The position numbers and the translations under genes are program-made. From assembly GCA_964467765.1 (NCBI GenBank), contig CAYXSS010000004.1:1-55654 (forward strand): a stretch of DNA of 55,654 nucleotides, in the 5' to 3' direction. A model generated the notes under the pieces. That model saw only the letters and a list, made by a program, of their open reading frames with translations, was not told the origin of the DNA and did not search any database. The stretch comes from an uncultured Candidatus Saccharibacteria bacterium. GTDB lineage: Bacteria > Patescibacteriota > Minisyncoccia > UBA6257 > 2-01-FULL-56-20. This document shows, piece by piece, positions 23,140-55,221 of the stretch; position 1 is the stretch's first letter, and each line of letters begins with the position of its first letter.

Positions 23140-23892
23140 ATGGAAGAACAAACTATAGAAAAAAAGTCCAAACAACCGAGCAATTTCATGCTCCCCGTTT
23201 CGATTCTTGTAGCCGGAGTTCTGGTTGCCGGTTCCGTCATCTATTCTGCCGGCAAGAACAATCTCGCCGCAAAGAATGCCAGCGGAAATTCAGGTACGCA
23301 AATACAGCAAACCGAGCAGCCGACGGCGCAAGCCCCGGACATCTCAAAAGTGAAAATTTCAGGGAACCCATTCGTGGGAAATCCGAATGCGCCGGTCACG
23401 GTGGCCTATTGGCTCGATTACCAGTGTCCTTTTTGCCGCAGATTCGAAACGCAATCCATGCCGCAGGTCTACGAAGAATATGTGAAAACCGGCAAGGTAA
23501 AACTCGTTTACAAAGATTTTCAATTCCTAGGACAGGATTCGCAAACACTTGGCGAGTTCGCCCGCGCCGTCTGGGAAGTTGCGCCGGACAAATTCTACTC
23601 TTGGCACAAAACAATGTACGAGAATCAAGGCACGGAGAATACCGGCTGGGCAACGCAAGACGTCATCATGCGCCTTACGACGCAAGAGATCGGTGCAAGC
23701 GACGCCGCGAAGGCACTCGCCCTCGTGCAAAGCAAAGGAGATCAATATCAACAGTTGATTGACGCCGACAAGGCGGAAGGATCATCTTTCGGCGTGAGCG
23801 GCACACCGTCATTCATCATTGGCAAACAGCTTTTGGTCGGGGCTCAGCCGTATTCGGTAATTAAACAGTTGATTGATCTGGCAGACAAGTAG
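23140..23892 (+). CDS. DsbA/BdbD-like membrane-anchored thioredoxin-fold protein
   Basis: GNPNAPVTV, DYQCPFC, GKVKLVYKDF, GVSGTPSF (cis-Pro), GAQPY. Confidence 0.93.
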   Translation: MEEQTIEKKSKQPSNFMLPVSILVAGVLVAGSVIYSAGKNNLAAKNASGNSGTQIQQTEQPTAQAPDISKVKISGNPFVGNPNAPVTVAYWLDYQCPFCRRFETQSMPQVYEEYVKTGKVKLVYKDFQFLGQDSQTLGEFARAVWEVAPDKFYSWHKTMYENQGTENTGWATQDVIMRLTTQEIGASDAAKALALVQSKGDQYQQLIDADKAEGSSFGVSGTPSFIIGKQLLVGAQPYSVIKQLIDLADK

Positions 23893-23894
23893 CC

Positions 23895-24428
23895 ATGGTG
23901 ATACTCCGCGCGCTCAAAATCGTTTTCCGGAATAAGGTATACGCATTTCTTGCCGGATTGATAGCACTGTTAGTTTTTTCTTTGGCGGCTTGGCTGCCGA
24001 ACTTGCGTGTTTTATTCTCTATCGAACTTAATCGTGCCGTATCGATCGGTGATAAACTTGCTTTTCCGTTGCGTCTGGCCGAATCAATCGCCACAAACTT
24101 CACAAAATTTTCCGCCTCATATACCGTCGCTACGGCCATCCTCTTCGGAATCAATCTTGCAATGACTGTTTATTTTTTCAAGAAAAGACAGGAAGACTTG
24201 AAGCGGGTCGGCACGGCAACCACATTCGCTGGTTTTCTAAGCGGCATGTTTGGCGTTGGTTGCGCCGCTTGCGGGTCGGTGATTTTGAGCTCCATGGGCG
24301 CAGGAGGGGCGCTCGCGTTTTTGCCGCTCCACGGCGGAGAGTTCGGCATAGCAGGGGTTTTGCTATTGGCTGTTTCAATCCTGCTGGTGGCCAAAAAAAT
24401 CGCTAAGACGTCGACGTGTGATGTATGA
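23895..24428 (+). CDS. 4-TM membrane protein with intramembrane CxxC
   Basis: GVGCAACGS, LAFLPLHG, C-terminal TCDV. Confidence 0.8.
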   Translation: MVILRALKIVFRNKVYAFLAGLIALLVFSLAAWLPNLRVLFSIELNRAVSIGDKLAFPLRLAESIATNFTKFSASYTVATAILFGINLAMTVYFFKKRQEDLKRVGTATTFAGFLSGMFGVGCAACGSVILSSMGAGGALAFLPLHGGEFGIAGVLLLAVSILLVAKKIAKTSTCDV

Positions 24429-24464
24429 TAGTAAATATCAACTAAATCATCTCTTAATAACGAC

Positions 24465-26153
24465 GTGATCAAAAAAATAATCGCTTCCGACAAAAACTAC
24501 TATCAATGCAAAGAGTGCGGCTTTCAGTATGTGGAGAAAAAATTGGCAGACAAATGTGAGGCGTGGTGTAAAAAGAGCCATAGCTGCAACATTGAAATTA
24601 CCGCGCATGCTGTAAAAAAAGGCAAAAACGACGAAGAAATCCGTTTGGCAAAAATCGAAGAAGGTGCAGCGAATAAAAACCGCACCTCCGTCTTGAAGAC
24701 AATATTCGGACAACCTTTATATATTCTTTCGGCTATTGATGGCGCTCTTGCAATCGGGCTTCTTTATTGGTGGTTGCTTTCTAAAACTACAACCTGGGTC
24801 GTTTTCTATGGAATGTACCGGAATGTGCCGCTTTATTTCTGGCCATATGTGCTCCTTACGTTTTTGAGCATGATTCTTTTCGGTATGAGCTTGGCCGTTT
24901 CTATTTACTCGTGGAAGCATTCCAAGTTGCGCAACGTAAAAGGTCAAAGCGGCAATGTTTTCGGCGCAACTTTCGGCGCGCTTGCCGCTGCCTGTCCTAT
25001 ATGCGGCTCATTCCTGCTTTCGGCAATCGGCATAGCCGGCGGAGTCGCCATCTTGCCGTTCAAGGGTCTTGAACTAAAACTCTTGAGCGCCGGATTTTTC
25101 GGCGTGGCGCTTTTCCTTTCCACAAAAAAGCTGTCCGAAGCCGCGGCGTGCGAGGCTTGTAAGGTGGACGAGGAGCCGTCAGACAGCTCAAAGGAGTCGG
25201 ATTCGCTGTTTTCATATCAGACGCTTCTTGCGATCTTCTTTTTGATTTTTCTTTTTGCTTCACCTCTTTGGAAAAGGGAGCTTATAGCGGCAAGCGTTGC
25301 CGCAAAAGACGGAACACTTCTTATGAATAACATTAGCCGCATTCAGAGCGCCCAAAACGGCAATGCGCTTTACAACGAAATAGTTGCCCAGGTGCTTCCT
25401 CAACAAGGATTTCAAACAAAAATTATTTTTGGCGACGCAATTGTCAAATTGGTTCAAAACGGCATCATTGATGCCGCAAAGTTCAGGGAAATATATAAAA
25501 ATCGCGGAATAAACGAAAAAGAACTAATTGTCCTCGCAGAACCTTCTTACGGGCCGATTAAAATAGACGCCAACAATGCCGGTATTATGATCAATCTTCT
25601 CTGGCCGCTTGGGCTTTCAAATAAAACCAGATTTAACGAGAAAAGCCCGGTCAAAGGAGAGTCGCTCTTTAATTTCGCGTCGACCGGAGGCTGGACGCTT
25701 GGCAAAGAAGATAACGGCGGAAAATACTTCAATAAATACGAGATTGTAAAACTTACGCCCGAACAGGAAGGGATTGCTTTAGATGTCGCGCAAAACACCT
25801 ATCGTCCGTGTTGCGGAAACTCCAGCTTCTTTCAAGACTGCAACCATGGCTCAGCGCTTCTGGGCTTGATCGAGCTTGGCGCATCTCAGGGGCTTTCCAG
25901 GGGCGAACTCTACAGGGTTGCTTTGCAGTTCAACTCATTTTGGTTTTCGCAGACCTATATTCAAACGGCGCTATACTACAAATTGGAAAAAAATACCGAT
26001 TGGAAAAATATCGATCCCGAAGAAATTATGGGCTTTAACTATTCGAGCGGCCCCGGATGGGCAAAAAACATCGCTCAGCCGTTTAAGGAAATCGTAGCCA
26101 AAAACCCAGGTCTTATGCCGCAAAAGCAAAGAGGAGCCGGTTGTGGCGTATAA
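24465..26153 (+). CDS. three-part fusion: Cys4 finger + CxxC TM domain + exported 'YRPCC..DCNHG' domain
   Basis: YQCKECG..KCEAWC..SC; AACPICGS; CEAC; NFASTGGW; YRPCCGNS..DCNHG; C-terminal GAGCGV. Confidence 0.85.
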   Translation: MIKKIIASDKNYYQCKECGFQYVEKKLADKCEAWCKKSHSCNIEITAHAVKKGKNDEEIRLAKIEEGAANKNRTSVLKTIFGQPLYILSAIDGALAIGLLYWWLLSKTTTWVVFYGMYRNVPLYFWPYVLLTFLSMILFGMSLAVSIYSWKHSKLRNVKGQSGNVFGATFGALAAACPICGSFLLSAIGIAGGVAILPFKGLELKLLSAGFFGVALFLSTKKLSEAAACEACKVDEEPSDSSKESDSLFSYQTLLAIFFLIFLFASPLWKRELIAASVAAKDGTLLMNNISRIQSAQNGNALYNEIVAQVLPQQGFQTKIIFGDAIVKLVQNGIIDAAKFREIYKNRGINEKELIVLAEPSYGPIKIDANNAGIMINLLWPLGLSNKTRFNEKSPVKGESLFNFASTGGWTLGKEDNGGKYFNKYEIVKLTPEQEGIALDVAQNTYRPCCGNSSFFQDCNHGSALLGLIELGASQGLSRGELYRVALQFNSFWFSQTYIQTALYYKLEKNTDWKNIDPEEIMGFNYSSGPGWAKNIAQPFKEIVAKNPGLMPQKQRGAGCGV

Positions 26154-26165
26154 AGTTAATGAGTT

Positions 26166-26252
26166 ATGAACGCTAATGTATCCCATCTGGCCGGAGGAAT
26201 GCTTGAGTGGGAGAAAAATGGTTATGAAATAATTAAAAAATATAATGAATGA
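26166..26252 (+). pseudogene. remnant of a rhodanese-domain gene (C-terminal end only)
   Basis: Translates MNANVSHLAGGMLEWEKNGYEIIKKYNE*, the rhodanese C-terminal signature; in-frame stops lie just upstream. Confidence 0.65.
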
Positions 26253-26784
26253 ATTAGAAAAAAAACCGCAAAGTTCTGGAACCGAACCATCCAAACAGGA
26301 GCTCTATCAGCTTAAAAGGTTGCAAAAAGAGGAGAAGCTTAAAATTGCGCACCGCAAACGCTTGGCTAAGAAAGCGGTGAATGTCGTTTTGATAATTTTA
26401 ATCGCGGGAGGAGCAATTTTTGGACTCGGTTGGTTTGTGTTAACTCGTCCCAGTTTACCGCCGACAAACGCTCAAGGTCATACCGAGGATATGCCCCAAT
26501 CGCACGTCAGCTACCAGCCGATACCGGACAGTATGCAGCGACACATGCTTGAGCACGCCGATGGCAGAGGCAAGCCCGGCATAATCATCCAATACAACTG
26601 CAAAAAATATTCTTGCGAGCCGGATTTAATTCAAAAACTCACCGATCTGGCAAAGCAATATCCGGATAATGTGTATCTCGCGCCGAATGATTACGATGCA
26701 AAAATTGTACTGACAAAACTGGGCCAGCAGGAAATATTGGAGAGTTTCGATGAAGATAAAATCAAAAAATTTATAGAATACTAG
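26245..26784 (+). CDS. membrane-anchored DUF3105-like protein
   Basis: TM anchor, QGHTE, RHMLEH..IIIQYNC..C. Confidence 0.7.
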   Translation: MNELEKKPQSSGTEPSKQELYQLKRLQKEEKLKIAHRKRLAKKAVNVVLIILIAGGAIFGLGWFVLTRPSLPPTNAQGHTEDMPQSHVSYQPIPDSMQRHMLEHADGRGKPGIIIQYNCKKYSCEPDLIQKLTDLAKQYPDNVYLAPNDYDAKIVLTKLGQQEILESFDEDKIKKFIEY

Positions 26785-26832
26785 CTCGCCCTGTCGAACG
26801 AGCCCGATCAATTTAAGAACCGGATAGTCATT

Positions 26833-27282
26833 ATGAATAAAACAACTTTAGTCTTCGTTACCGGATTAATCATTCTTGCAGGAGGATATTTCTGGTTGCG
26901 GAACGGCGCGAACCGGTCCGAAAATAGCGCCCCGTCTCTTGCGGTTCCCGCGCCAGGTTTCGAATCGACGCCGGAGAAAACGGTTGCTACAGAAGGACAA
27001 TCTCAGACAAAAGAAATAACGATTGCCGGCTCGGAATTTTCTTTCTCGCCCGCGAAAATTTCGGTAAAGACCGGAGAAAAAATCGCAGTGCGTTTTCAAA
27101 ACGCCGGTAAAACAATCCATAACCTGGAATTCGGTTTTCGAGGCATTACGACGCGCACGATAGATAGCGGGCAAAGCGATATGATTGAATTTACCGCCCC
27201 GATCGCCGGAGTCTACGCTTTCTTTTGTTCTGTTCCTGGTCATCGCGAGCGCGGCATGGAAGGAAGGTTAATGGTTCAATAA
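26833..27282 (+). CDS. exported cupredoxin (blue-copper) protein
   Basis: EFSFSP, HNL, FFCSVPGHRERGM give His/Cys/His/Met type-1 Cu ligands. Confidence 0.92.
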   Translation: MNKTTLVFVTGLIILAGGYFWLRNGANRSENSAPSLAVPAPGFESTPEKTVATEGQSQTKEITIAGSEFSFSPAKISVKTGEKIAVRFQNAGKTIHNLEFGFRGITTRTIDSGQSDMIEFTAPIAGVYAFFCSVPGHRERGMEGRLMVQ

Positions 27283-27323
27283 GATTGGCTGCGGATTTTC
27301 CAATTCTAGATTAAACGACTAGC

Positions 27324-28184: not shown

Positions 28185-28457
28185 ATGTTGGATCAAAAAC
28201 TCAAAAAAAGGTCGATTCATCGCGCAAAAATAATCAGAGGTCAAATTGACGGCCTCATTCAAGCCATTGAAAGGGAAGTGTACTGCTCCACGTTATTAGA
28301 GCGGTCGCTATCTATTCAAAGGTCGCTTAAAAGCCTCGACGCTTATATGTTAGAAAATCATCTGCGGACCCACGTAAGATATCAAATGAATCGCAAAGAA
28401 GGAATAAACAAAGCCGTGCAGGAACTTGTCAAAGTTTATACGCTATCGAATAAATAA
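28185..28457 (+). CDS. CsoR/RcnR family metal-sensing repressor
   Basis: RAKIIRGQIDGL, YC, LENHLRTHV; 90 aa, all helical. Confidence 0.92.
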   Translation: MLDQKLKKRSIHRAKIIRGQIDGLIQAIEREVYCSTLLERSLSIQRSLKSLDAYMLENHLRTHVRYQMNRKEGINKAVQELVKVYTLSNK

Positions 28458-28649: not shown

Positions 28650-29900
28650 ATGAAAAACAAAACTACTGGCGCAGTCTTGTTGGTTGGGGCAATACTATAT
28701 TTTCTTTTTACCACCTTTGTTGCCGGCCACGGCTTTCATCCGCTTAACACGCTGATCACAATCTTTCTCTTGGTTTTTGGATTTATAACCATCTTCAAAA
28801 CCAAAGAAGAAACGGCATCTTCTCAACCCCAAATCACTGAAACGACGCAGGAGGAGGCTCCGACGTTGCAACCAAGCCAAAAACTAAAAATCTTTTTTGT
28901 TAGTTTGGCATTCGGATTGCTCACCGCCATTATTATTGCCCTTACTTATTTAGCTACTTCTGCCGGAGAGACATTAACAACCATCCTTTCTTTTGCCGGG
29001 GGTGTATCAAATATTGTTTTGCCGTGCACCTTACCGCTCGTATTTATTATTGTCCCGCTTTCGATGGGAAAGGGGTATAAAAAGGGACTTATGATGGCAA
29101 TTCTTTTCAGCATCGGTCTTGTCGTGATGCTTGCGATTTACGGAGGGACAATAGCTCTTGTCGGAAAATATCTTGGACTAGATCAGGCGACGAAATATCT
29201 TTATATTGTTGCCGGCATCGCCGCCCTTATTTTCGGCTTGGCTGAACTTGCGCTGATATCCTTCGAAATGCCGTCGTATTCAAAAGTGCCGGCCTTTATT
29301 CAGCGACAACCCGACTACGCAAAATCTCTTTTCCTTGGTTTATTTCTTGGAAACGCAGGCATAGGTTGTCCGAATCCGGTTACGTACCTGATTTTGGCCG
29401 CCGCGGCCGGCACCGGGAGCGTGGCGGTAGGTGCTTGGTACATGGCGGTTAACGGTCTGGGCAGGGCGCTGCCGCTCATTTTTCTTTCGGTGCTAGGTAT
29501 TCTCGGAGTAAACGCAACGAATGGCATACTGAAGAAAAAGGTTGCGGTTGACAGGATAACTGGATGGGCGCTTGTGGTCATATCATCGTTTATTATCCTC
29601 AACGGAGTTTTCGGGCACCTTTGGTACGAGGGTTCGATTTTCCATGAAGGCCTAAACATGCTCTTTGGGAAAATTGGAAGTAGGGTTACGGAAGCAAACA
29701 TCGCGATTCAACAGTTCGAAACCGCGGTTCCGTTCGTCTGGTTGGGAGCGTGGATCAATCTTCTTTTGCCGCCAATCGTGCTTACCTGGTATTTTTTCAA
29801 GAAAAATGGCGCAATGTCGAAAAAAATGTTCTGGATCTTGCTCTTAGTGTTTATATTTTGGGGATTATTAACCATGCCCATCGGGGTCAAGATGGGATAA
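28650..29900 (+). CDS. CcdA/DsbD-type transmembrane electron transporter with extra TM helices
   Basis: VLPCTLP and GCPNP paired Cys in TM helices. Confidence 0.85.
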   Translation: MKNKTTGAVLLVGAILYFLFTTFVAGHGFHPLNTLITIFLLVFGFITIFKTKEETASSQPQITETTQEEAPTLQPSQKLKIFFVSLAFGLLTAIIIALTYLATSAGETLTTILSFAGGVSNIVLPCTLPLVFIIVPLSMGKGYKKGLMMAILFSIGLVVMLAIYGGTIALVGKYLGLDQATKYLYIVAGIAALIFGLAELALISFEMPSYSKVPAFIQRQPDYAKSLFLGLFLGNAGIGCPNPVTYLILAAAAGTGSVAVGAWYMAVNGLGRALPLIFLSVLGILGVNATNGILKKKVAVDRITGWALVVISSFIILNGVFGHLWYEGSIFHEGLNMLFGKIGSRVTEANIAIQQFETAVPFVWLGAWINLLLPPIVLTWYFFKKNGAMSKKMFWILLLVFIFWGLLTMPIGVKMG

Positions 29901-30135: not shown

Positions 30136-30390
30136 ATGATCAATATTCAGTTCGTTACAGTGCCCGGGTGCCATGAATGCGCCAAAGCGAAAAAAATTTT
30201 TGAGGAACTAAAACCAAGATACCCCGAAATGCAAATTACGGAAATTAACGCTACCTCTGCCGAAGGAATCGCGCTGGTTCAAAAATATGGCATTTTTTCC
30301 AGCCCCGGCGTTGTTGTTAATGGTGAATTGTTTTCCACCGGGGCGCTGAACAAAAACGAGTTTATAAAAAAATTGGATGCATTGAAATAA
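30136..30390 (+). CDS. small glutaredoxin/thioredoxin-like protein
   Basis: PGCHEC, SSPGVVVNG; 84 aa. Confidence 0.85.
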   Translation: MINIQFVTVPGCHECAKAKKIFEELKPRYPEMQITEINATSAEGIALVQKYGIFSSPGVVVNGELFSTGALNKNEFIKKLDALK

Positions 30391-30943: not shown

Positions 30944-31921
30944 ATGACATACGATCTTATTATTATTGGCGCTGGCGCTGCTGGTTATGGAGCTGCTATC
31001 TATGGCGGAAGATATCGCCTGAAAGTTCTTGTTATCAGTAAAGAATTTGGCGGAGAAACGGCTAGCGCCGGCACCATCGAAAATTATCCCGGAATTCCAT
31101 CAATCGGCGGTTTTGAATTGATGGAGGCCATGAAAAAGCAAGCAGAAAATCTCGGCGTCGAGACACTTGAAGCGGAGGTTACTGATATAAAAAGAAAAGA
31201 ACACTGCTTCGAAGTTTTTATAAGTAATACCGCCTATCAAACACATGAAATTATTTTTGCCCTTGGCGCAGAACGGCGCCGATTGGGATTTCCCAACGAA
31301 AAAGAACTTACTGGGCGCGGCGTGCACTACTGTGTTACTTGCGACGCGCCGCTTTATAAAGATAAAACGATCGCCATGGTCGGAGGAGGAGATGCCTCGG
31401 TCAAAGGAGCGGTGTTCGCGGCCGAATATGCAAACAAAATATTTCTTATCGTCCGCGGCAAAGAGGTTGTTGCCGAACCAATTAATCTTGAGCGAATGAA
31501 AAAACTTGGTGACAAGATAGAACTGCTCTTGGACACGGAAGTCAAAGGGTTGGTTGGTCAAAAAAAATTAGAAAAATTAAGGCTTTCCCGCCAGTTTAAA
31601 AACTCGGAAGAATTGATCGTTGACGGACTTTTTGTTGAAATCGGGGCGATTCCAAATGTTTCGCTTGCGAAATCTCTTGGCGTGGAATTGGATGAACGTG
31701 GATATATAAACGTAGACAACATGATGAAAACAAATATAGACGGAGTATTTGCAGCAGGAGACGCGACAAATCATTTCGGATCTTTTAAGCAAGACATAAC
31801 CGCGGCCGCAATGGGCGCTGTAGCCGCGACATCAGCTTATAACGATCATAAAATTCATGGAGACCTTTGTCTGACGCACGCCCAACCATCACAGCAAATA
31901 AATCAGAAGGTCGAAAAATAA
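30944..31921 (+). CDS. trxB: thioredoxin-disulfide reductase
   Basis: IIGAGAAG, IENYPG, GRGVHYCVTCD, VGGGD, GVFAAGD. Confidence 0.9.
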   Translation: MTYDLIIIGAGAAGYGAAIYGGRYRLKVLVISKEFGGETASAGTIENYPGIPSIGGFELMEAMKKQAENLGVETLEAEVTDIKRKEHCFEVFISNTAYQTHEIIFALGAERRRLGFPNEKELTGRGVHYCVTCDAPLYKDKTIAMVGGGDASVKGAVFAAEYANKIFLIVRGKEVVAEPINLERMKKLGDKIELLLDTEVKGLVGQKKLEKLRLSRQFKNSEELIVDGLFVEIGAIPNVSLAKSLGVELDERGYINVDNMMKTNIDGVFAAGDATNHFGSFKQDITAAAMGAVAATSAYNDHKIHGDLCLTHAQPSQQINQKVEK

Positions 31922-36210: not shown

Positions 36211-36224
36211 ACATATCAACAACT

Positions 36225-37714: not shown

Positions 37715-40012
37715 ATGACTCAAAAAATACAAATTAACATTGAGGGAATGACTTGCGTGAGCTGTGCGCGAAACATCGAGGGCTTTGTCATGACCATCCC
37801 TGGAGTAAAATCGTCAGAAGTCAGCTTCCCGTTGGAAAAAGCTTTTGTTGAATTGGACGCTAGCGTTACCGCAGGTTCGGAGTTGGCTCAAAAAATTACG
37901 GCACAGCTCGGCTACAAGGCTTTTGTTGAAACAGAAGAGTCTGCGGCAGATAAAGAGACAAAAGTTCACCAGGAAGAAATAAGGCGCCAAAGAAACTACA
38001 CTATCGTTTCTTGGCTCATAGCCATTCCGGTGATGCTGGGCACATTTCGTGAGTACTGGATTTTGAGTTCGTTTGTCCCGGAATTTTTTGCCAACAGCTA
38101 TTTTCTATGGCTCTTAACCACGCCATTAATGTTTGGTCCGGGTTGGCAATTCTTCATCGGTACGTGGCGTGGGTTAAGGCATGGTTTCACGGATATGAAT
38201 CTTTTGGTTGCAACCGGTACTGGCGCGGCATATCTCTTGGGGGTCACGAATACTCTGTTTCCCAAAGCTGGGTTCGGCGGGCCGGAAGTGGCGTTTTTCG
38301 AAACAGCCGCGCTTCTAATAGCCTTCTTGGTTTTAGGACGCTATCTGGAAGCCTTGACGCGTGGCAGAGCTTCAGAGGCTATTAAAAAACTAATGGGGCT
38401 AAAGGTAAAAAATGCCAGAGTGATGAGAAACGGAAAAGAAGAAATCATTCCCATCGATTCCATTGCGGTTGGCGATCTCGTTGTGGTCAAGCCGGGCGAA
38501 AAGATTCCCGTTGATGGTGTTATGCGCGAGGGATATTCGGCCATTGACGAATCAATGATTACCGGCGAAAGCGTTCCGGTTGATAAAAAAACCGGCGATT
38601 CTGTCATCGGGGCTACTATCAACAAAAGCGGCTTGATAAAATTCGAAGCAGTCAAGATTGGGAAAGACACAATGCTTTCCCAAATCATAACTTTCATCGA
38701 AGAAGCGCAACTCGCCAAGCCGAAAATTCAGAAATTGGCGGATAAGGTATCGGCAAATTTTATCCTTATCGTTCATATTCTCGCACTGCTTGTTTTTCTC
38801 TTCTGGTTTTTCGTCGGCTACGATTACTTTTTTACCGCCGGAAGCAAATTTTTGCTTTCGAACATTGTGCTGTCATCCGTTCCTATATCGGTATTTGCTG
38901 TGCTCTTAAGCATCACGGTTCTTATAATTTCCTGCCCGTGCGCCGTGGGATTGGCAACGCCAAGCGCCATAATGGCCGGTACGGCGAACGGCGCCAATAA
39001 CGGAATCTTGATCCGCGGAGGAGATGCCCTGGAACGGGCATCAAAAATTGATACGGTTGTCCTCGATAAAACCGGCACGCTCACCAAGGGTCGTCCATCC
39101 CTCACGGATGTTCACAGCACTTCGGATCTAACCGAAACCGAAATTTTACGGCTAGCTGCATCAGCGGAAAAAGGATCGGAGCATCCGTTAGGCGAAGCGA
39201 TTGTTGAAGCGGCGAAAGAAAAAAAGCTGGTTTTTGAAACCGTTTCTGATTTTAAAGCGATTCCCGGCCAGGGAATCGAGGCTCTGCTTGGCACAAAACA
39301 AATCTACTTTGGCAATAGAAGGTTGATGAAAGATAAAAATATTCCTTTGCCAGGGGTCAATTTTACGGTAGAAAAACTTGAAGAAGAGGGCAAAACAATA
39401 ATGCTCTTGGCCGTCAACGGGAAGATCAAGGGATTTATCGGGGTGGCCGATACTCTCAAAGAAAACTCAGCTCAAGCGGTGAAAAAATTAAAAGAACTTG
39501 GTATGCGTGTCATCATGCTCACTGGCGATAATCCGAGAACAGCGCGCGCCATCGCAGAAAAAGTTGGCATTTCCGAATTTTTGGCAGAAGTTCTTCCCGG
39601 GCATAAGGCGGATGAGATTAAAAAATTACAGAAAGGCGGCAAAATTGTCGCTATGGTTGGCGACGGCATCAATGATGCACCGGCCTTGATGCAGGCCGAC
39701 GCGGGAATTGCTATCGGATCTGGATCTGATATTGCCAAAGAGGCCGGACAGATAGTGTTGATAAAAGACGACATTCAGGACGTTATACACGCTTTTGATT
39801 TAAGTAAGGCAACCATGAGAAAAATCAAAGAGAACCTTTTTTGGGCTTTTATATATAACGCGCTCGGCGTTCCCATCGCTGCCGGAATTCTCTACCCGGG
39901 TTTTAAACTTCTGGTAAGCCCGGAATTGGCAGCGTTGTTTATGGCTTTAAGCTCTGTATCGGTAACTCTGAATACGTTAAGGCTTAAAAGGTGGCGGCCG
40001 AAAACAACATAA
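37715..40012 (+). CDS. copA: Cu(I)-translocating P1B-1 ATPase
   Basis: N-terminal [40 protein letters not shown] and MALSS. Confidence 0.95.
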
Positions 40013-44397: not shown

Positions 44398-44433
44398 AGA
44401 TGTTTGCAAAAGTTTAAAGAAGTTAAAGATATT

Positions 44434-45018: not shown

Positions 45019-45033
45019 AAATCATAAAAAACC

Positions 45034-46275: not shown

Positions 46276-46308
46276 ATGGACCAGACAATAACCACTTTAT
46301 AAAAACAC

Positions 46309-48652: not shown

Positions 48653-49012
48653 ATGAAAAATTTTTTAACCTATCAATTTTTGATTCGTTCGGGCCTTGCA
48701 ATTGTATTTTTTGCTAATTCTCTAAAGGCTTTTTTTGCTCCGAAAGAATTCATCGAGATCGTCGAGCGCGCATTCTTTGCCGGTGCTTTGCCGGTATCCG
48801 CAGAAACGTTTGTGGTGATAATAGGAATCAACGATGTCTTGGTGGCAATTCTGTTATTGTGGGGCATTAGAACGCGGCTGGTTGCAATATGGGCGGTGCT
48901 TTGGATTATCGGCGCAACGGTAACACAGGCCGCGTTATTGGAAGCCCTGGAAGAGGTTGGTTTTTTAGCTATGGCGGTCGCGCTAATATATGATAGGCAA
49001 ATGAACACCTAA
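48653..49012 (+). CDS. DoxX-like membrane protein
   Basis: IRSGLAIVF, IGINDV..LLLWG..R..A; 4 TM. Confidence 0.65.
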   Translation: MKNFLTYQFLIRSGLAIVFFANSLKAFFAPKEFIEIVERAFFAGALPVSAETFVVIIGINDVLVAILLLWGIRTRLVAIWAVLWIIGATVTQAALLEALEEVGFLAMAVALIYDRQMNT

Positions 49013-51465
49013 TGAATCACGATCATAGCAACACAAACGGTATGCCGGCTCGTAACCAACGCCCGGAAGAAAAACCAGCCATACCCGTAAATGACAAGGG
49101 GGAGACGGTTTACACCTGTCCCATGCATCCGGAAGTTCGGCAGTCAAAGCCCGGAAGATGCCCCGGATGCGGCATGGAGCTTATTAAAGAGAAAAGAGGC
49201 AAAGAGACAGCCAAAGAACACGGAACGCATGATGTTTCAAAAATGAGCCACAAAGATCATGAGGCAGCCATGACAGATCCGAGAGTCGCAAAAAAAATGG
49301 AAGCGGATATGCGCCGAAGATTTTGGATTTCGTTTGTCCTGCTTGTACCGATTTTTCTTTATTCTCCGGTTGCCACCGATTATTTTAAATTGGAACTTCC
49401 ATCGCCGATTTCGGTGAACCTGCTTCTATTTCTCCTCACTACGCCGATAGTTTTTTGGACCGGCTCAATATTTATTACCGGTACTTATTGGTCGCTCAAG
49501 GCGCGTAAACTTAATATGGCGGTTTTGGTTGCAACCGGCGTTTTGGCCGCTTATCTATTCAGCGTTCTCCTCACTTTTGCTCAACCAAACGCCAGAACTT
49601 TCTATGAGGCAGCAGCGGCTTTGGTTACGTTCGTATTGTTTGGCCACTGGATGGAAATGCGTTCGCGGCGAGGTACGTCGGAAGCCTTGAGAGCATTATT
49701 TGATCTTGTGCCGCCGCAAGCAACGGTGATCCGCGACAGCAAAGAAATTGTCATCCCCAGCGTAGAAGTTATAAAAGGAGATATTGTGGTAATTCGTCCA
49801 GGCAATAAAATTCCCGTAGACGGAGAGGTTATCGATGGCGAAACCTACATTGATGAAGCGTTGGTAACCGGTGAATCCCTGCCGGTTCATAAAAAACTCG
49901 GCAGCCAGGTGGTTGGCGGCTCCATCAACCAACGAGGTTCGATTAAATTTAAGGCGGTGAAAGTCGGCGGGGAGACGGTGCTCGCGCAGATTATCAAAAT
50001 GGTGGAAACCGCGCAGAATTCTAAGGCACCCGGTCAAAGAATCGCCGATAAGGCCGCAGGAATTCTTGTTGTCGTTGCCATTGGTTCGGGATTGTCGGCT
50101 TTCATGGGTTGGTATTTTGCAGCCGGCATCGGCATGATTGGTGCGCTTACTTTTGCTGTTTCCACCGTCGTCATTGCCTGTCCCGACGCGTTGGGACTTG
50201 CCACGCCAACGGCCGTTGCGGTTGGCACCGGTCTTGGTGCCAAACACAACATTCTTATTAAAGACGCAACGACTCTCGAAAAAACTTCTAAAATCAACGC
50301 AATGATTTTGGATAAAACAGGAACGCTTACCAAGGGCGAGCCGGCGGTAACGGATATAATTTCATTCATCGAAACGAAGAGTCAAAACGTGCAAGCCGAG
50401 ATTCTTCGTGTCGCCGCGTCAATTGAAAAACACTCCGAACATCCGTTGGCCAAAACCATCGTGGACAAAGCATCAAAGGACAGCCTGGAACTTCTTAATG
50501 TTTCTAAGTTTGAAGCGGTCGCCGGTCACGGAGTAAAGGGTTTTATTGTCGGTCTTGCGGCCGGTTTGGGAAAAAAGTCTTCTCACCCGCTCGACACAGC
50601 GATTCAAAAAGAAGCAGAAGCCCTGCACGCGAATAAACCGGATGTCGCGGAATTTAAAGTAGAACCCGGCTTTGGATTACAGGGAAAAGTAAACAGTGAA
50701 GGCCGCCCCTCGCAAGGCGAGCCCAGTTCCGAAGGAGCTGGGCACCTGGTACTTTTGGGAAACCAGCGGCTTATGGAAGAACGTGGGATATTGGTAAATT
50801 ACGATGCGCGGCAGAAATTGGAGCAGCTGCAAAATGACGGAAAAACCGCTATGTTTTTGGCTCTCGACAACGAAGTAATCGGAGCTATCGCAGTTGCCGA
50901 TACAATCAGGGAGAATTCCAAACGAGCGATTGCAGAACTTCGTAAAAACGGCATAGAAATTATTATGATTACCGGCGACAATCAGCGCACCGCCGAAGCA
51001 ATTTCCAAACAGCTTGGCATTGACCGCGTGTTTGCGGATGTTTTGCCCGCCGATAAAGCAAAATGGGTTAAAAAACTTCAGGACGAAGGCAAATTCGTAG
51101 CCATGGTTGGCGACGGTATCAATGATGCGCCGGCGCTGGCGCAGGCGGACATTGGCATTGCCATTGGCGCCGGCACGGACGTTGCCATTGAAACAGGAAA
51201 CATTGTACTAATGAAATCCGATCCGTACGATATCGTAGCGGCAATTCGCTTAAGCAGGGCGACGGTCGTAAAAATGAAACAGAACCTTTTTTGGGCGGCG
51301 ATTTACAACGTGCTTTCAATCCCGGTTGCCGCAGGCGTATTCTATAACTCCCTTGGCTGGTCGTTGCGCCCGGAAGTTTCAGCGCTCCTTATGTCCGCAT
51401 CTTCGATTATTGTTGCGACAAATGCGGTTTTACTGAAGCGCGTTGAACCGCGCCTGCGTTTATAA
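49012..51465 (+). CDS. copper-translocating P1B ATPase with CPD motif and N-terminal YTCPMHP domain
   Basis: YTCPMHP..CPGCGM, His/Met linker, TGES, IACPDALGLATP, DKTGT, GDGIND, YN, MSASS. Confidence 0.93.
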   Translation: MNHDHSNTNGMPARNQRPEEKPAIPVNDKGETVYTCPMHPEVRQSKPGRCPGCGMELIKEKRGKETAKEHGTHDVSKMSHKDHEAAMTDPRVAKKMEADMRRRFWISFVLLVPIFLYSPVATDYFKLELPSPISVNLLLFLLTTPIVFWTGSIFITGTYWSLKARKLNMAVLVATGVLAAYLFSVLLTFAQPNARTFYEAAAALVTFVLFGHWMEMRSRRGTSEALRALFDLVPPQATVIRDSKEIVIPSVEVIKGDIVVIRPGNKIPVDGEVIDGETYIDEALVTGESLPVHKKLGSQVVGGSINQRGSIKFKAVKVGGETVLAQIIKMVETAQNSKAPGQRIADKAAGILVVVAIGSGLSAFMGWYFAAGIGMIGALTFAVSTVVIACPDALGLATPTAVAVGTGLGAKHNILIKDATTLEKTSKINAMILDKTGTLTKGEPAVTDIISFIETKSQNVQAEILRVAASIEKHSEHPLAKTIVDKASKDSLELLNVSKFEAVAGHGVKGFIVGLAAGLGKKSSHPLDTAIQKEAEALHANKPDVAEFKVEPGFGLQGKVNSEGRPSQGEPSSEGAGHLVLLGNQRLMEERGILVNYDARQKLEQLQNDGKTAMFLALDNEVIGAIAVADTIRENSKRAIAELRKNGIEIIMITGDNQRTAEAISKQLGIDRVFADVLPADKAKWVKKLQDEGKFVAMVGDGINDAPALAQADIGIAIGAGTDVAIETGNIVLMKSDPYDIVAAIRLSRATVVKMKQNLFWAAIYNVLSIPVAAGVFYNSLGWSLRPEVSALLMSASSIIVATNAVLLKRVEPRLRL

Positions 51466-51498
51466 CCTTACAACACACTTGAAGACGTGGCCGGTCTA

Positions 51499-51527
51499 TT
51501 GTAAATTAAACCGATACGAGGTATGAT
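51499..51527 (+). promoter_or_regulatory. sigma70 promoter for the last operon
   Basis: TTGTAA-17 nt-TATGAT. Confidence 0.55.
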
Positions 51528-51554
51528 GGATTTATTAAATTGAAGTAAAATAAC

Positions 51555-51890
51555 ATGGAGAAAAAAACAGCAATTGTTATTATGATAACTGCTCTTGTGG
51601 CCGGAGGTTTGTTGGGCTACTTTGCCAAAGGGTCGCGAACTTCATTAAGTACCAATTATTTGCGCGAAACGGCCAACCTTATGAAAACCGACGGTTCAAG
51701 CATGATGGAGCACGGACAAATGATGATGTCTGCTGGTCAGATGATGCGGCAAAAAGGCGAAAAGTATAAGGATCAAGAAATGATACAAGAAAGTCAGAAG
51801 TTGCAGCAACATGGTCAAATGTTGCAAGATGAAGGCACGACCATGATGGCCAGCGGCAATAGCATGATGCAAACCATGGGGCAACAATAA
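51555..51890 (+). CDS. exported Met-rich heptad-repeat protein
   Basis: TM/signal, then GxxMM heptads; 17 Met in 111 aa. Confidence 0.8.
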   Translation: MEKKTAIVIMITALVAGGLLGYFAKGSRTSLSTNYLRETANLMKTDGSSMMEHGQMMMSAGQMMRQKGEKYKDQEMIQESQKLQQHGQMLQDEGTTMMASGNSMMQTMGQQ

Positions 51891-51907
51891 CAAAGAAAGG
51901 CCGCTTT

Positions 51908-52345
51908 ATGTTAACGAAACCATTAACAATTTTGATTATCCCAAGCCTACTTGCCGTTGGTTTGTTTGGAATATTCGGGATAAATATGACAAATTACAAC
52001 GGTCAGCATTCTTGCCCCGTTTCCGCGTTGTCGAGCGACAACTGTTCGTCTTCCGATGGTCCGCTCGCCGAAATATTTCATCACGTTTCGGTGTTGCAGA
52101 ATTTTGCACAAAGCGTTGTTGGCACTAATGCTCCGTTTTTAACCCTTTCCGTTATTTTGATTATTGTGCTTTGGTTTTTCAGACTGACAGCGCCAAAAGA
52201 ACCGCTGGCGAAAATTTTTTCTCATAAAAGATACTATCGCGACAAGGCAGAGCTTCGCCAGCCAAAACAACGGCTTTTGCGCTGGCTTGTTTTGTGTGAA
52301 AAAAGAGATCCGCATGCACTGCGATGGGTGCATGACTATTCCTGA
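51908..52345 (+). CDS. 2-TM Cys/His protein (putative leader)
   Basis: TM-QHSCPVSALSSDNC..FHH-TM, C-terminus RWLVLCEKRDPH. Confidence 0.7.
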   Translation: MLTKPLTILIIPSLLAVGLFGIFGINMTNYNGQHSCPVSALSSDNCSSSDGPLAEIFHHVSVLQNFAQSVVGTNAPFLTLSVILIIVLWFFRLTAPKEPLAKIFSHKRYYRDKAELRQPKQRLLRWLVLCEKRDPHALRWVHDYS

Positions 52346-52384
52346 TCCACCAGGGATATTTAGGGATTTTGCCTTAAATTCATG

Positions 52385-52414
52385 CACCCGCCAAAAGGTC
52401 TTGGCGGGTGTTTT
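52385..52414 (+). terminator. terminator/attenuator-like hairpin before ccdA
   Basis: CACCCGCCAA-AAGGTC-TTGGCGGGTG-TTTT, perfect 10-bp stem. Confidence 0.75.
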
Positions 52415-52457
52415 GGTTAGCGGTTCGATAAATTCACCTTAAACAAAACAAAACATT

Positions 52458-53363
52458 ATGGAATTATTACTAAGCGCATCGTTAATAGCGGCATTCATCG
52501 CCGGAGTGGCGGCGCTCTTTGCGCCGTGCTGCATCACCGTGCTTTTGCCTGCGTATTTCGCATCTATTTTTCGGGAGCGATATAAGGTATTTCTGATGAC
52601 TTTCGTTTTTTTCTTGGGATTGCTTGCTGTTTTTCTGCCGATAGGTCTTGGCGTCGCGGCGCTCGGTCAGTTCTTCAGCCAATACCACAACGCCATTTTT
52701 GGAATCGGCGGCGTATTTTTGATTCTCTTGGGGCTTATCCTCCTTACCGGCAAGCATTTCTCAATGCCGTTTCGGGTTAGTCCGACCCTGAAAAAACATA
52801 ACGTGATTTCGGTTTTTGTCCTCGGCATTTTTTCTGGAATCGCTGTTGGTTGTTGCGCGCCGGTATTAGCTGGAGTTTTGGCCTTAGCAGTTCTTCCCGG
52901 ATCAATAGTCTGGGGCGGAATTTATACCTTGAGCTATGTACTCGGCATGGTTGCCCCGCTGTTCTTTTTGTCTCTTGTTATGGATAAAACCGGCATTACC
53001 CGGAAACTTAGCGGCTCGCTTCAGAGGCGTATCGAGTATTCGGTTGGAAGCAAAAAGTTCAACATCGCGGTTTCCGAAGCCATTTCCGGAATTACGTTTT
53101 TTACAATGGGAACATTGATTTTTTACTTGGCCCTGACAAACCGACTTTTTGTTCATTCTGGATATCAGGTAACTATCAACGTGTTTCTCACTAAGATTTT
53201 GAATTCGGTAAATGGTTTCATAAAGGTCGTACCCGAATATGTCTGGGCGATCATTTTACTGACAGCAATCGCCCTGATCGTGAAAATAGCAATAAATCAA
53301 TTAAAACAGCCCTCCCTTGCCCAAGAAGCTTCGGAGGACAAAGAACAAGAAGAACCTCGTTAG
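52458..53363 (+). CDS. CcdA/DsbD-type transmembrane electron transporter
   Basis: FAPCCITVLLP and GCCAPVL; YVLGM. Confidence 0.88.
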   Translation: MELLLSASLIAAFIAGVAALFAPCCITVLLPAYFASIFRERYKVFLMTFVFFLGLLAVFLPIGLGVAALGQFFSQYHNAIFGIGGVFLILLGLILLTGKHFSMPFRVSPTLKKHNVISVFVLGIFSGIAVGCCAPVLAGVLALAVLPGSIVWGGIYTLSYVLGMVAPLFFLSLVMDKTGITRKLSGSLQRRIEYSVGSKKFNIAVSEAISGITFFTMGTLIFYLALTNRLFVHSGYQVTINVFLTKILNSVNGFIKVVPEYVWAIILLTAIALIVKIAINQLKQPSLAQEASEDKEQEEPR

Positions 53364-53487
53364 AAGCCTAGCGCAGAAAAAATGTTAATTTTTTCTGCGC
53401 GGCGATAACGGGACATAGCCAATAACAAAATAATAGAATCCTATTTGAAATTGATCCTTGATCATATAAAAGTAGGCCTCTAACGAG
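53356..53487. repeat. MITE-like element with 15-bp terminal inverted repeats
   Basis: CTCGTTAGAAGCCTA..TAGGCCTCTAACGAG (14/15 match); internal hairpin GCGCAGAAAAAA..TTTTTTCTGCGC. Confidence 0.7.
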
Positions 53488-54120
53488 ATGAAAAAAAATA
53501 ACATGAAAACAATAGCATCAATTATAGTCGTGGTTTTGATCGTGGGCGTACTGTTCTACTTCGGCGGCAGAAGCAAAACCAGCGCTTTGCCCGCTACGGC
53601 AATCGATCCCATGCATGCCGGGACAGCTAATGTTTCTCCCGCCGCGTCGCTGAATAATCTGTTGAACAAACAAACGCCGTCATTCTCTTTCACGGACAAA
53701 AACGGCACTGTCTATTCGTCAGAAAATATGCGCGGCAAAAACGTCATTCTTTTCTTTAGCGAAGGATTGATGTGTTATCCGGCGTGCTGGAATCAAATCG
53801 TTGCCTTGGCAAAAGACGATCGATTCAGGACGGCAAACACTGCAGTTCTGACCGTGGTGGTTGATTCAAAGGACGATTGGCAAAAAGCAATAGACAAGAT
53901 GCCGGAACTTGCTCAAGCAACGGTAGTATTTGACGAAGGAGCGGTGGTTTCTAAAAAATTTAACATGCTTGGAATGCCGTCTTCCATGCACCCCGGTTCG
54001 CTTCCCGGCCATACCTTTGTTTTAATCGACAAAGAAGGAGTGGTCCAATACGTCTTTGACGATCCGCAAATGGGAATTCGAAACAATCAACTGATCTCCG
54101 AAGTCGCGAAATTAAAATAA
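53488..54120 (+). CDS. membrane-anchored redoxin (AhpC/TSA/ResA-like)
   Basis: PSFSFTD, RGKNVILFF, MCYPAC, FVLIDKEGVV; alternative start 53503. Confidence 0.85.
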   Translation: MKKNNMKTIASIIVVVLIVGVLFYFGGRSKTSALPATAIDPMHAGTANVSPAASLNNLLNKQTPSFSFTDKNGTVYSSENMRGKNVILFFSEGLMCYPACWNQIVALAKDDRFRTANTAVLTVVVDSKDDWQKAIDKMPELAQATVVFDEGAVVSKKFNMLGMPSSMHPGSLPGHTFVLIDKEGVVQYVFDDPQMGIRNNQLISEVAKLK

Positions 54121-54122
54121 AT

Positions 54123-54193
54123 TCCAGTTAGAGGTCGCGCTCGCGCCAAAGACGCGAGTTCAAAGGACCGCGGCGCGGCTATTTCTAACTGGA
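54123..54193. repeat. structured GTTAGA..TCTAAC repeat, copy B
   Basis: TCCAGTTAGA..TCTAACTGGA perfect 10-bp inverted repeat; inner CTCGCG/CGCGAG hairpin. Confidence 0.78.
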
Positions 54194-54201
54194 CAAAAAT
54201 C

Positions 54202-55221
54202 ATGGAAGAAGAAACAAAAAACGAGGTGTTCGAGGATATCCGGTCGGTTAAAAAACAACCCAAAACAGATCGCGTGCTTCCTGTAAGCATTTTTATCTCG
54301 GCAATAATAATTGCTGGCGCATGGGTGTATGCCGCAGGGCTTAAAAACATTCCTCAACGGCAGACGGCTTCGACACTTTCGCCATCTTTACAAAAAACCC
54401 AAGGATCGGAGCTGGAAGAAAAAGTAATACCGTCGGAGGGGGTTGTTTTGCCGGCTACGTGGGGCGATCTTGGCGCAAAACTTGTAAACGTGGGCGCGAT
54501 TGACGCCGACCAATTCAAAACGATCTACGAACAAAGAGGAAGTTTTACCGACGAATATAAAAACCTGTTGCTTGGGCAGAGCGACGGAAGATTAAAAATT
54601 ACACAGGATAATGCCGGCTATCTGTTGAATTTGTTTTGGGCTCTCGGCCTGGCGCAAAAAAATCAGATACTTGAATCAGGAGAAATGGTCGACCCGAGAT
54701 ACGGAGGTACTCAAAATTTTGCTTCGACCGGAGGTTGGACAATTGCCAAGGGAAACGCGATGGATCACTACAGCCGTCATGTATTGTTTAGGCTGACGCC
54801 GGAACAGCAAGCGCTTGTTGATAAAATCTCGAAAGGCATTTATCGGCCGTGTTGCGGCAATTCAACTCATTTCCCGGACTGCAATCACGGGATGGCGATG
54901 TTGGGTCTCTTGGAACTTATGGCTTCGCAAGGCGCAAGCGAAGATGAAATGTGGAGGGCGGCTCTTGCCGCCAACTCTTATTGGTTTCCCGACATCTATC
55001 TCACTGTCGCGACTTATATGAAAGACAAGGGGATTGACTGGAAAGATGTAAGTCCGCAAGAAGTGCTTGGGGCCGATTATTCAAGCGCTCCGGGATATGC
55101 GAGAATTTCCGCTCAAATCAGCCAGCCCCAGCCGGTGCGCAGCGGAGGCGGTTGCGGAATAGATACCGGACAACCTGTCCAACCGCAACCACAGCGTCGA
55201 CAAGGCGGATGCGGCATATAA
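54202..55221 (+). CDS. membrane-anchored exported 'YRPCC..DCNHG' protein (paralog of the C-terminal domain of 24465..26153)
   Basis: NFASTGGW, YRPCCGNSTHFPDCNHG, ELMASQG, two GGCGI tails. Confidence 0.88.
   Translation: MEEETKNEVFEDIRSVKKQPKTDRVLPVSIFISAIIIAGAWVYAAGLKNIPQRQTASTLSPSLQKTQGSELEEKVIPSEGVVLPATWGDLGAKLVNVGAIDADQFKTIYEQRGSFTDEYKNLLLGQSDGRLKITQDNAGYLLNLFWALGLAQKNQILESGEMVDPRYGGTQNFASTGGWTIAKGNAMDHYSRHVLFRLTPEQQALVDKISKGIYRPCCGNSTHFPDCNHGMAMLGLLELMASQGASEDEMWRAALAANSYWFPDIYLTVATYMKDKGIDWKDVSPQEVLGADYSSAPGYARISAQISQPQPVRSGGGCGIDTGQPVQPQPQRRQGGCGI

Follow-up and report, generated by a model that had tools for sequence, protein, structure and literature searches.

A conserved Cys3-His domain encoded with CcdA-type proteins in copper-export clusters of Patescibacteria

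Two copies of DOM in a Saccharibacteria contig

The DNA analyzed here (the window) is a stretch of 55,654 nt on contig CAYXSS010000004.1 of an uncultured Candidatus Saccharibacteria bacterium (GCA_964467765.1), whose 786-kb genome assembly comprises 31 contigs and is 97.29% complete. It contains two gene modules, each of which encodes one copy of a domain that we call DOM (Table 1). DOM defines a conserved family built around an invariant R-P-C-C-x7-D-C-N-H-G center, with a flexible tail ending in Cys-Gly-(Ile/Val), and it is encoded right after a CcdA-type thiol protein, or fused to a C-P-x-C-G membrane module, in clusters containing CsoR and P1B-type ATPase genes. It is probably an undescribed component of copper defense.

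A sequence-only reading of this DNA had proposed that the C-terminal part of the 562-amino-acid (aa) product of 24465..26153 and the body of the 339-aa protein encoded by 54202..55221 are paralogs. BLASTP bore this out, with 113/275 identities (41%, E 5e-66) between DOM-A and DOM-B in an alignment that pairs residues 304–562 of the first protein with residues 69–339 of the second and contains all of the motifs listed in that reading (NFASTGGW, LTPEQ, YRPCCGNS-x4-DCNHG, EL.ASQG, NS.WF and YSS). The host genome has exactly two DOM copies, both in the window, and Pfam searches recovered the neighbors of both modules as they had been described. The DOM-B domain carries RPCC-x7-DCNHG, and the cluster of Lys and Arg residues before its transmembrane (TM) helix suggests that it faces outside.

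DOM was also said to belong to no named family, and every search agreed. Neither copy matched Pfam or NCBIfam at E ≤ 0.01; the best match of the single protein against PDB sequences was a nanobody at E 0.98, that is, no relative, and a DOM family profile against PDB sequences returned nothing at E ≤ 10. A protein atlas search found DOM relatives only in unnamed 'hypothetical protein' clusters, and full-text literature searches, with subscription journals outside their coverage, found no description of the family. The family is nevertheless large. At least 7,277 proteins match DOM at E ≤ 1e-3 in a word-indexed search (at most 8,000 candidates considered; clusters at 90% identity), and the best 120 relatives, query excluded, are 61–79% identical, all annotated as 'hypothetical protein' and free of Pfam domains; those with named hosts come from Patescibacteria/Parcubacteria lineages. 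Exhaustive phmmer against representatives of clusters at 50% identity matched 560 clusters at E ≤ 1e-3 and 204 at E ≤ 1e-30. Species-representative genomes contain at least 584 DOM-encoding places, the best 80 of which all belong to the Candidate Phyla Radiation (CPR). Sequence identity among distant lineages is 60–79%, and the distribution within the phylum of the window is patchy (33/401 sampled genomes; 33/320 genera).

Conservation was assessed in an alignment of 118 sequences, consisting of both window copies and 116 diverse representatives that are 36–61% identical to the query. Residues W78, R147, C149, C150, D158, C159, N160, H161 and G162 are invariant (numbered within the domain; positions in protein B are higher by 68), and the FASTGGW loop together with several further positions is at least 90% conserved. 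The proposed Cys3-His set is thus conserved, as three Cys and one His. Among 270 family proteins, 246 have both motifs and a complete C-terminus, and 240 of these place a Cys within the last six residues, mostly in a terminal G-C-G-I or G-C-G-V. The spacing between the CC and DC motifs is seven residues in 261/261 proteins having both, and most DOM domains hold just four or five Cys altogether.

Table 1 Features of the window, with examples of two unnamed families from related loci
Feature	Position	Strand	Family match or evidence
Module 1 DsbA-like thioredoxin-fold protein, anchored, CPFC	23140..23892	+	PF13462 (Thioredoxin_4) 7.6e-29; PF01323 (DSBA) 2.3e-14
Module 1 TM CxxC protein, 177 aa, stand-alone paralog of membrane CxxC module	23895..24428	+	26% identity to fused module, CxxC aligned
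Cys-rich ribbon-like domain (CxxC...CxxxC...C..H), N-terminus of ORF 24465..26153	24465..24620	+	
Membrane module fused ahead of DOM-A	24675..25361	+	C-P-x-C-G in predicted TM helix, P..GLE.K loop, CxxC after next helix
DOM-A, residues 304-562 of 562-aa ORF 24465..26153, ends GAGCGV	25374..26153	+	Paralogous domain
Module 1 DUF3105-like anchored protein	26245..26784	+	PF11303 25.3 bits (cut-off 25); relatives in 6/80 loci
Module 1 anchored cupredoxin, C..H..M pattern	26833..27282	+	PF13473 5.7e-12; PF00127 1.7e-10
Module 1 CsoR-type metal-sensing repressor	28185..28457	+	PF02583 3.8e-15
Module 1 DsbD_2-type membrane protein	28650..29900	+	PF13386 1.6e-06, 28.6 bits
Module 1 small thioredoxin/glutaredoxin-like protein	30136..30390	+	PF13192 8.7e-11
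Module 1 thioredoxin-reductase-like flavoprotein	30944..31921	+	PF07992 8.9e-44
P1B-type ATPase with HMA domain, CopA-like	37715..40012	+	PF00122, PF00702, PF00403
Second P-type ATPase, N-terminal HMBD metal-binding domain, first gene of module 2	49012..51465	+	PF00122 4.9e-51; PF19335 1.3e-12
Module 2 anchored Met/His/Gln-rich protein	51555..51890	+	Sequence
Module 2 two-TM protein, conserved C...CP...H outside, W-L-x-L-x-E-N-S-P C-terminus	51908..52345	+	Relatives in 64/80 loci; no named family
Terminator-like hairpin, 11 pairs (7 G-C), between 51908 gene and CcdA gene	52384..52411	+	Consensus scan
Module 2 CcdA-type membrane thiol transporter, APCC in first helix, CCAP in later helix	52458..53363	+	PF02683 (DsbD_TM) 2.5e-11, 43.8 bits (cut-off 27.1)
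Module 2 anchored thioredoxin-fold redoxin, M-C-Y-P-A-C, S-S-M-H, P-G-H	53488..54120	+	PF00578 (AhpC-TSA/Redoxin) 1.2e-14
DOM-B, 339 aa: N-terminal TM helix, ~240-aa domain (residues ~69-305), Gly/Pro/Gln-rich tail ending GGCGI	54202..55221	+	
Ribbon genes in related loci	L003:1504-1665, L032:1745-1936, L043:4370-4522, L080:8305-8484, L007:10870-11028		
D-C-C-x-E proteins in related loci, examples	L002:6276-6794, L003:6216-6728, L006:6249-6776		

The common strand and short gaps suggest that the modules are operons, and the hairpin at 52384..52411 may divide module 2 into two transcripts. The CcdA-type protein (52458) belongs to the CcdA/DsbD family by its profile score and by an APCC and CCAP consensus in 18 relatives. 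The 177-aa TM CxxC protein and the Met-rich protein have no Pfam or NCBIfam family, and no relatives of the latter occur in the 80 related loci described below. The DsbD_2-type protein directly after CsoR is a third DsbD-clan membrane protein with P-C-T-L-P and G-C-P-N-P motifs, and the next Pfam-matched genes downstream are those for the small thioredoxin and then the thioredoxin-reductase-like protein. The intergenic region between the CcdA and redoxin genes contains a perfect 13-nt inverted repeat with a 4-nt spacer (53371-53400), for which an operator or an RNA hairpin is conceivable. Between the modules (35086-37498 and 44404-47991) lie genes for a cyclopropane-fatty-acid-synthase-like methyltransferase, a lycopene-cyclase-domain protein, a flavodoxin-like reductase, a geranylgeranyl-reductase-like flavoprotein and an ABC1/UbiB-type kinase, a lipid/isoprenoid set unexpected in a 0.79-Mb genome. 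Positions 51500-55300 were found in only four public sequencing runs, all DNA runs of one study (X1–X4) labeled as mine drainage metagenome, with no RNA run among them; the label fits a metal-rich habitat, and the runs may be the source of the assembly.

Copper genes and membrane thiol modules around DOM

The context of DOM was surveyed in 80 related loci, taken with up to 7 kb per side and with open reading frames (ORFs) called; 41 of them are incomplete on at least one side. The loci were searched with the window proteins and then with iterated hidden Markov models (HMMs) that included recurrent unknown neighbors. The second count covered 78 loci, as a poor DsbA HMM captured the DOM ORFs of L048 and L070, and those extending 5 kb or more to each side (39 loci) made up the full-length set.

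Recurrent linkage to CcdA-type proteins and copper genes, on which the sequence-only reading depended, was found. In the full-length set, a P-type ATPase is encoded in 37/39 loci, a CcdA-type protein in 36/39, a TM C..CP..H protein related to 51908 in 36/39, DUF1573 in 32/39, CsoR in 23/39, a cupredoxin in 17/39, a helical protein ending D-C-C-x-E in 16/39, an HMA-DsbD_2 protein in 14/39 and a CxxxC redoxin in 7/39. The usual order on one strand is CsoR, ATPase, TM C..CP..H protein, DUF1573, a 259-aa CcdA-like protein, an optional D-C-C protein and DOM, often followed on the same strand by HMA-DsbD_2 and a small cupredoxin. The CcdA-type gene lies within 1.5 kb upstream of DOM on the same strand in 67/78 counted loci, and, of the 37 loci possessing CsoR, 28 have it on the DOM strand and upstream of DOM. 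In the window itself, DOM is encoded with a copper sensor (CsoR, 28185) and exporters (ATPases 37715 and 49012).

Other parts of the proposed system fared differently. Of the suggested CcdA–redoxin relay, the membrane half is the constant partner, with a CcdA-type protein in 70/78 counted loci, but the CxxxC redoxin occurs in only 16/78. The dedicated link to TrxB did not recur, neither TrxB nor the small thioredoxin being encoded in any of the 80 loci, and the DsbA linkage seen in module 1 is rare elsewhere (5/80). A multicopper oxidase was found in just one locus. An exact ATACCC-N5-GGGTAT palindrome, which we take to correspond to known CsoR operators, is present in 16/36 CsoR upstream regions; the regions upstream of CsoR and DsbA in the window contain no inverted repeats. 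Four one-mismatch palindromes directly upstream of DOM in related loci were set aside, their number being close to that estimated by chance.

DOM is the constant element of these loci and its membrane modules are interchangeable. The APCC/CCAP CcdA of the window type occurs in 18/80 loci, 13 of which also encode the CxxxC redoxin, and the 259-aa CcdA-like protein with HPC and FPC motifs occurs in 55/80, 52 of which encode DUF1573 with a C-M-C motif; both CcdA types are present in 2/80 and neither in 9/80. The third type is the C-P-x-C-G membrane module fused to DOM, found in module 1 of the window and in many of the 35 long family representatives (more than ~375 aa). C107 and C110 of this module are invariant in an alignment of 19 sequences. 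Its AlphaFold2 model (pLDDT 74.4) gave no Foldseek match and only generic helical matches (Z ≤ 7.9), which speak neither for nor against a link to DsbB, VKOR, DsbD or Mer proteins.

The long representatives also revealed other fusions. A rhodanese domain directly precedes DOM in 3/35, one (P0130) joins DOM through a single TM helix to a cytoplasmic HMA domain, one has an AAA_14 domain and one a BNR C-terminal extension; 29/35 have no Pfam domain, and many of these show the C-P-x-C-G module by eye. The ribbon-like domain of the window belongs to a family of 50–63 aa (C-P-x-C-G ... K-C-E-x-W-C ... S-C-N ... H) that forms a separate gene in 5/80 loci and adjoins the P-type ATPase gene in four of these, a place often occupied by a copper chaperone gene. 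In the window, the ribbon shares the reading frame of the membrane module and DOM-A; this may or may not be a true fusion, as translation of the membrane protein could begin at either of two TTG codons (positions 60 and 76).

These data bear on the possibility that DOM has nothing to do with copper and is a surface enzyme or a structural Zn/Fe-Cys protein riding on a mobile metal-resistance island, with CcdA serving only in folding. The patchy distribution (33/401 genomes) and the very high cross-lineage identity suggest that whole islands are transferred, in which case the neighbors are possibly hitch-hikers, and 8/78 counted loci show no copper marker, though most of these are incomplete. 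We nevertheless consider this improbable, as the ATPase shares the strand of DOM throughout nearly the whole full-length set, DOM is fused to HMA and to the ATPase-linked ribbon domain, and the tight order from CsoR and the ATPase to CcdA and DOM recurs.

The redoxin of module 2 has 14 relatives with invariant M-C-Y-P-A-C, S-S-M-H, P-G-H and D-D-P-x-M motifs, in which a CxxxC pair is accompanied by several invariant Met and His residues. Its nearest PDB sequences are the Bcp-type peroxiredoxin 2ywn (6.5e-12), Etrx (4hqz and 2yp6) and ResA. A Sco-like reading, prompted by the CxxxC and His residues, is conceivable from the motifs, although ScoI (4wbj) matched more weakly (4.7e-4) and was outranked by the Bcp-type, Etrx and ResA sequences. 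The redoxin may supply reductant, bind copper by means of its thioredoxin-fold domain, or do both. Complex prediction of DOM with the redoxin domain scored 0.04 and 0.12 against a mark of 0.32 and is given no weight either way.

Several other cassette members are unnamed as well. The family of 51908 usually sits right after the ATPase gene and has its W-L-x-L-x-E-N-S-P motif at the cytoplasmic end. The D-C-C-x-E protein, encoded between the CcdA-like gene and DOM in 29/80 loci, is soluble, helical, ~170 aa long and without Pfam match, and is a possible partner of the membrane thiol protein on the cytoplasmic side. The Ig-like DUF1573 proteins carry T-S-C-M-C-T with G-M-P-G-H-G or A-H-G-P-A-G and are encoded before the 259-aa CcdA-like protein (for example, L012:4451-4942 and L012:4948-5727), a pair reminiscent of the Ig-like and membrane domains of DsbD made as separate proteins. 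HMA-DsbD_2 proteins have a small cupredoxin with C ... C-G-M-G-M-Y either encoded after them or fused to them (L012:7559-9007, L039:7846-9275, L036:1711-3462 and L052:7803-9575), similar to the Cu(I) site of CupA, which suggests a second copper route via a DsbD-clan membrane protein. ICMT/PEMT-family membrane methyltransferases are encoded near DOM in 9/80 loci (for example, L006:7825-8448 and L013:6045-6698); that the Cys-Gly-(Ile/Val) C-terminus of DOM might be modified is pure speculation.

Weak likeness of the DOM core to CcmH

The AlphaFold2 model of DOM is mostly helical and of high confidence (pLDDT 97.4, pTM 0.94). Foldseek of the model against PDB returned nothing at E ≤ 0.001, and its only compact local matches were the periplasmic CcmH domains 2hl7 and 2kw0. 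In a structural search of 48,161 chains, 2hl7 ranked first (Z 4.9, rmsd 3.2, 78/82 residues, model residues 85-224), followed by a chain at Z 3.5; among 56 Foldseek candidate chains, Z ≥ 2 was reached only by 2hl7 (4.9) and by E. coli CcmH, 2kw0 (4.3, 78/81 residues). Given Z values below 5, the predicted likeness to the CcmH fold, a three-helix bundle whose active loop joins helices 1 and 2, is a lead and not a fold assignment. A thioredoxin fold of the DsbA, TlpA or Sco kind does not fit DOM, whose model is almost all-helical and gave no thioredoxin-fold matches in the fold searches.

Profile comparison pointed to the same relative. With hhalign, DOM residues 130-184 aligned with the active-site region of CcmH at E 0.036 when a single E. 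coli sequence was used, and at E 0.0037 (probability 8.9%, Cys loop aligned) with an alignment of 13 CcmH sequences that included E. coli CcmH (annotated K-12 record) and eleven diverse ccmH genes from plasmid records. Over domain columns the score was 27.4, compared to 12.8 for the reversed control and 9.0–19.5 for 30 column-shuffled controls. DOM C150 aligns with the second Cys of the CcmH motif L-R-C-x-x-C and invariant R147 with the first; N152, D158 and N160 align with conserved CcmH N, D and N, and C159 with an invariant CcmH Ser. DOM has R-P-C-C in place of the CcmH redox motif, and its only sequence match to the CcmH family is this weak profile-profile one, with no Pfam match at E ≤ 0.01.

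The models PF03918 (CcmH), PF01578 (CcmC/CcmF/CcsA), PF05140 (ResB) and PF13442 (common cytochrome c domain) had no match anywhere in the host genome, and each was detected in control genomes. The earlier suggestion that the region lacks a cytochrome c target therefore extends to the genome, which has no matches to cytochrome c maturation genes, CcmH included. The CcmF/CcmI heme lyase and apocytochrome c with which CcmH would work are likewise missing from the matches (PF01578, PF05140 and PF13442). With no cytochrome c genes found, the CcdA-type proteins here must serve another client.

Taken together, the core of DOM resembles the CcmH thiol reductase weakly but consistently, as judged from model and profile. 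DOM lies outside CcmH as defined, yet may well descend from the CcmH fold. The sequence-only reading was thus right that the domain fits no family, but it is not without relatives. In common with CcmH, DOM is predicted to be membrane-anchored and outward-facing, with a helical core and the active Cys in a loop before a helix; the profile alignment covers C-x-N-x(3-4)-D-(S/C)-N and the following G-x-S-x-x-E helix. The DOM gene also follows a thioredoxin-fold gene and a DsbD/CcdA-type gene (52458, 53488 and 54202), the same arrangement at the gene level. Unlike CcmH, which comprises ~80 aa, DOM spans ~240 aa with an extra N-terminal subdomain and inserts; besides a vicinal CC pair it has one more core Cys, a His and a Cys in its tail, and Arg replaces the first Cys of the CxxC motif; and it is encoded in copper operons, in a genome without matches for heme lyase, CcmI or cytochrome c.

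DOM could accordingly be read as a CcmH-like thiol-disulfide reductase that does not bind copper and receives electrons from the CcdA-type module, either directly or via the redoxin or DUF1573. Its targets would be copper-catalyzed disulfides in surface proteins or the Cys copper proteins of the cassette, and the tail Cys would act as a resolving or shuttling thiol. CcmH is the sole structural and profile relative of DOM, and the aligned Cys is the exposed C-terminal Cys of the CcmH motif, which is thought to make the attack (PMC3884852). The order CcdA, thioredoxin-fold protein, DOM mirrors DsbD, CcmG, CcmH, and in the plasmid records examined the DsbE/CcmG gene directly precedes ccmH. The frequent adjacency of CcdA-type genes (67/78 loci), the rhodanese fusions and the enzyme-like conservation of DOM agree with such a role, and copper-induced Dsb-like reductase systems are known (Scs; PMC10907172). 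Set against this are the replacement of the first CcmH CxxC Cys by an invariant Arg and the HMA-TM-DOM and ribbon fusions, the latter pointing to metal traffic. Cys3-His is, moreover, a typical Cu(I) ligand set. On balance, we hold pure reductase activity to be rather unlikely, though it is the chief rival to copper handling.

Proposed copper handling by DOM and its significance

We tentatively favor the view that DOM is a thiol protein that handles Cu(I) outside the cytoplasm and depends on a membrane Cys relay to stay reduced, a proposal to which we assign somewhat less than even chances. DOM would then be the working end of a patescibacterial copper-stress operon, anchored in the membrane and facing outward. 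The membrane Cys module would bring reducing power from the cytoplasm, and the thiols of DOM could thereby stay reduced on an oxidizing, copper-laden surface. The Cys3-His center, with the tail Cys as a swinging arm, may bind Cu(I) leaving the ATPase, and DOM could then buffer the copper or pass it on, for example to nearby cupredoxin-type proteins. Its scaffold looks derived from CcmH, with the exposed nucleophilic Cys of CcmH corresponding to the second Cys of the CC pair. This copper-handling role is favored because it would explain why DOM is encoded in a copper operon, has this ligand set and is fused to HMA and ribbon domains, and why every other outward-facing protein of the cassette bears Cys/Met/His motifs. 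It overlaps with disulfide reduction, since a copper protein with Cys ligands and a supply of reductant can also perform thiol exchange.

Precedents in known systems lend it further weight. TlpA–ScoI/CoxB (as in Bradyrhizobium TlpA–ScoI) and CcdA–Etrx–MsrAB both run from CcdA to an anchored thioredoxin-fold protein and on to an outward client whose Cys residues are kept reduced. Etrx (4hqz and 2yp6), ResA and ScoI (4wbj) are among the PDB matches of the window redoxin; the client here, however, is a new helical domain with neither Sco nor Msr fold, and the thioredoxin-fold step is replaced by DUF1573 and the other CcdA-like protein in 55/80 loci. By analogy only, DOM and its modules also recall the Mer relays, with the Cys pairs of MerP and MerT and the C-terminal CC arm of MerA, and the vicinal CC Cu(I) site of Cox17: paired or vicinal Cys occur on both membrane faces and in a TM helix, together with a flexible C-terminal Cys arm. 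DOM has no detectable homology to any of these. The Salmonella ScsABCD and CueP proteins are the second precedent, in that a copper-responsive cluster combines a DsbD-like membrane reductant, thioredoxin-fold proteins and a Cys-bearing client (PMC10907172). CueP, which binds Cu(I) in the periplasm, is described there as obtaining the metal from CopA or GolT in vitro and as receiving it from ScsB/ScsC. The differences are clear: no sequence or fold relation between DOM and CueP was seen, CsoR takes the place of CueR/CpxR as regulator, the cell is of the monoderm-like CPR type, and a short CcdA-type protein or the new C-P-x-C-G module acts as membrane partner.

A further rival would make DOM a copper redox enzyme, as proposed for CopG or in line with the Cu(II) reduction of CueP, in which a Cys-bridged site interconverts Cu(II) and Cu(I) with electrons arriving via CcdA. 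It would draw on the steady electron supply implied by CcdA in 36/39 full-length loci, on the vicinal CC and Cys-x-His site and on cupredoxins or a multicopper oxidase nearby in some loci. This evidence is indirect, with the multicopper oxidase in only 1/80 loci. The fold of DOM is also unrelated to that of CopG, whose CxCC site lies in a thioredoxin-like fold, and we give this rival little probability. Reduction of Cu(II) by CueP is reported in PMC10907172.

A number of findings weigh against Cu(I) handling as the role of DOM. The 80 loci are the closest kin of copy B and of each other, so that their counts are not independent and may be seen as one widespread cassette. The window itself has no clean CsoR-type palindrome, with no TACCC-N(2-8)-GGGTA and only poor two-mismatch matches, and the hairpin in module 2 may uncouple CcdA, redoxin and DOM from the ATPase transcript. 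The rhodanese fusions (3/35) point to sulfur or thiol chemistry, not copper, and the nearest structural relative of DOM is a disulfide reductase and no metalloprotein, a link that is itself weak (Z < 5; hhalign probability 8.9%). Cu(I) binding by the invariant, ligand-like C, C, C, H set is putative, and the invariant polar residues (R, D, N, N and the FASTGGW loop) and the identity of 60–79% across distant lineages resemble an enzyme active site more than a simple chaperone.

A bolder extension of Cu(I) handling starts from module 1. DOM, the fused C-P-x-C-G module and the cytoplasmic Cys ribbon might together form a new trans-membrane thiol relay, in which a CcmH-derived Cu(I)-thiolate center with a swinging C-terminal Cys arm would move copper, or electrons, straight across the membrane without DsbD-type proteins; Patescibacteria, lacking respiratory chains, would have repurposed a cytochrome-maturation fold as their principal defense against copper at the surface. 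We think this unlikely.

Envelope thiol systems that copper induces and whose client bears Cys follow a known logic. The client domain here has no name, nor do the membrane module with C-P-x-C-G and a number of further cassette members, and full-text searches outside subscription journals found no description of them; the clusters contain at least four more unnamed Cys/Met/His-rich families. Patescibacteria are a major part of bacterial diversity, and for most of their conserved proteins no function has been assigned. The DOM family is abundant, unusually conserved and confidently folded without a clear solved relative, with a fixed place in copper-export operons, and the cassette offers a compact entry point for experiments. 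If DOM binds or processes copper, it would be a new type of protein in bacterial copper homeostasis and would show how cells with minimal genomes protect their surface thiols. If it is a descendant of CcmH, it would represent a cytochrome-maturation fold that has survived where cytochromes were lost.

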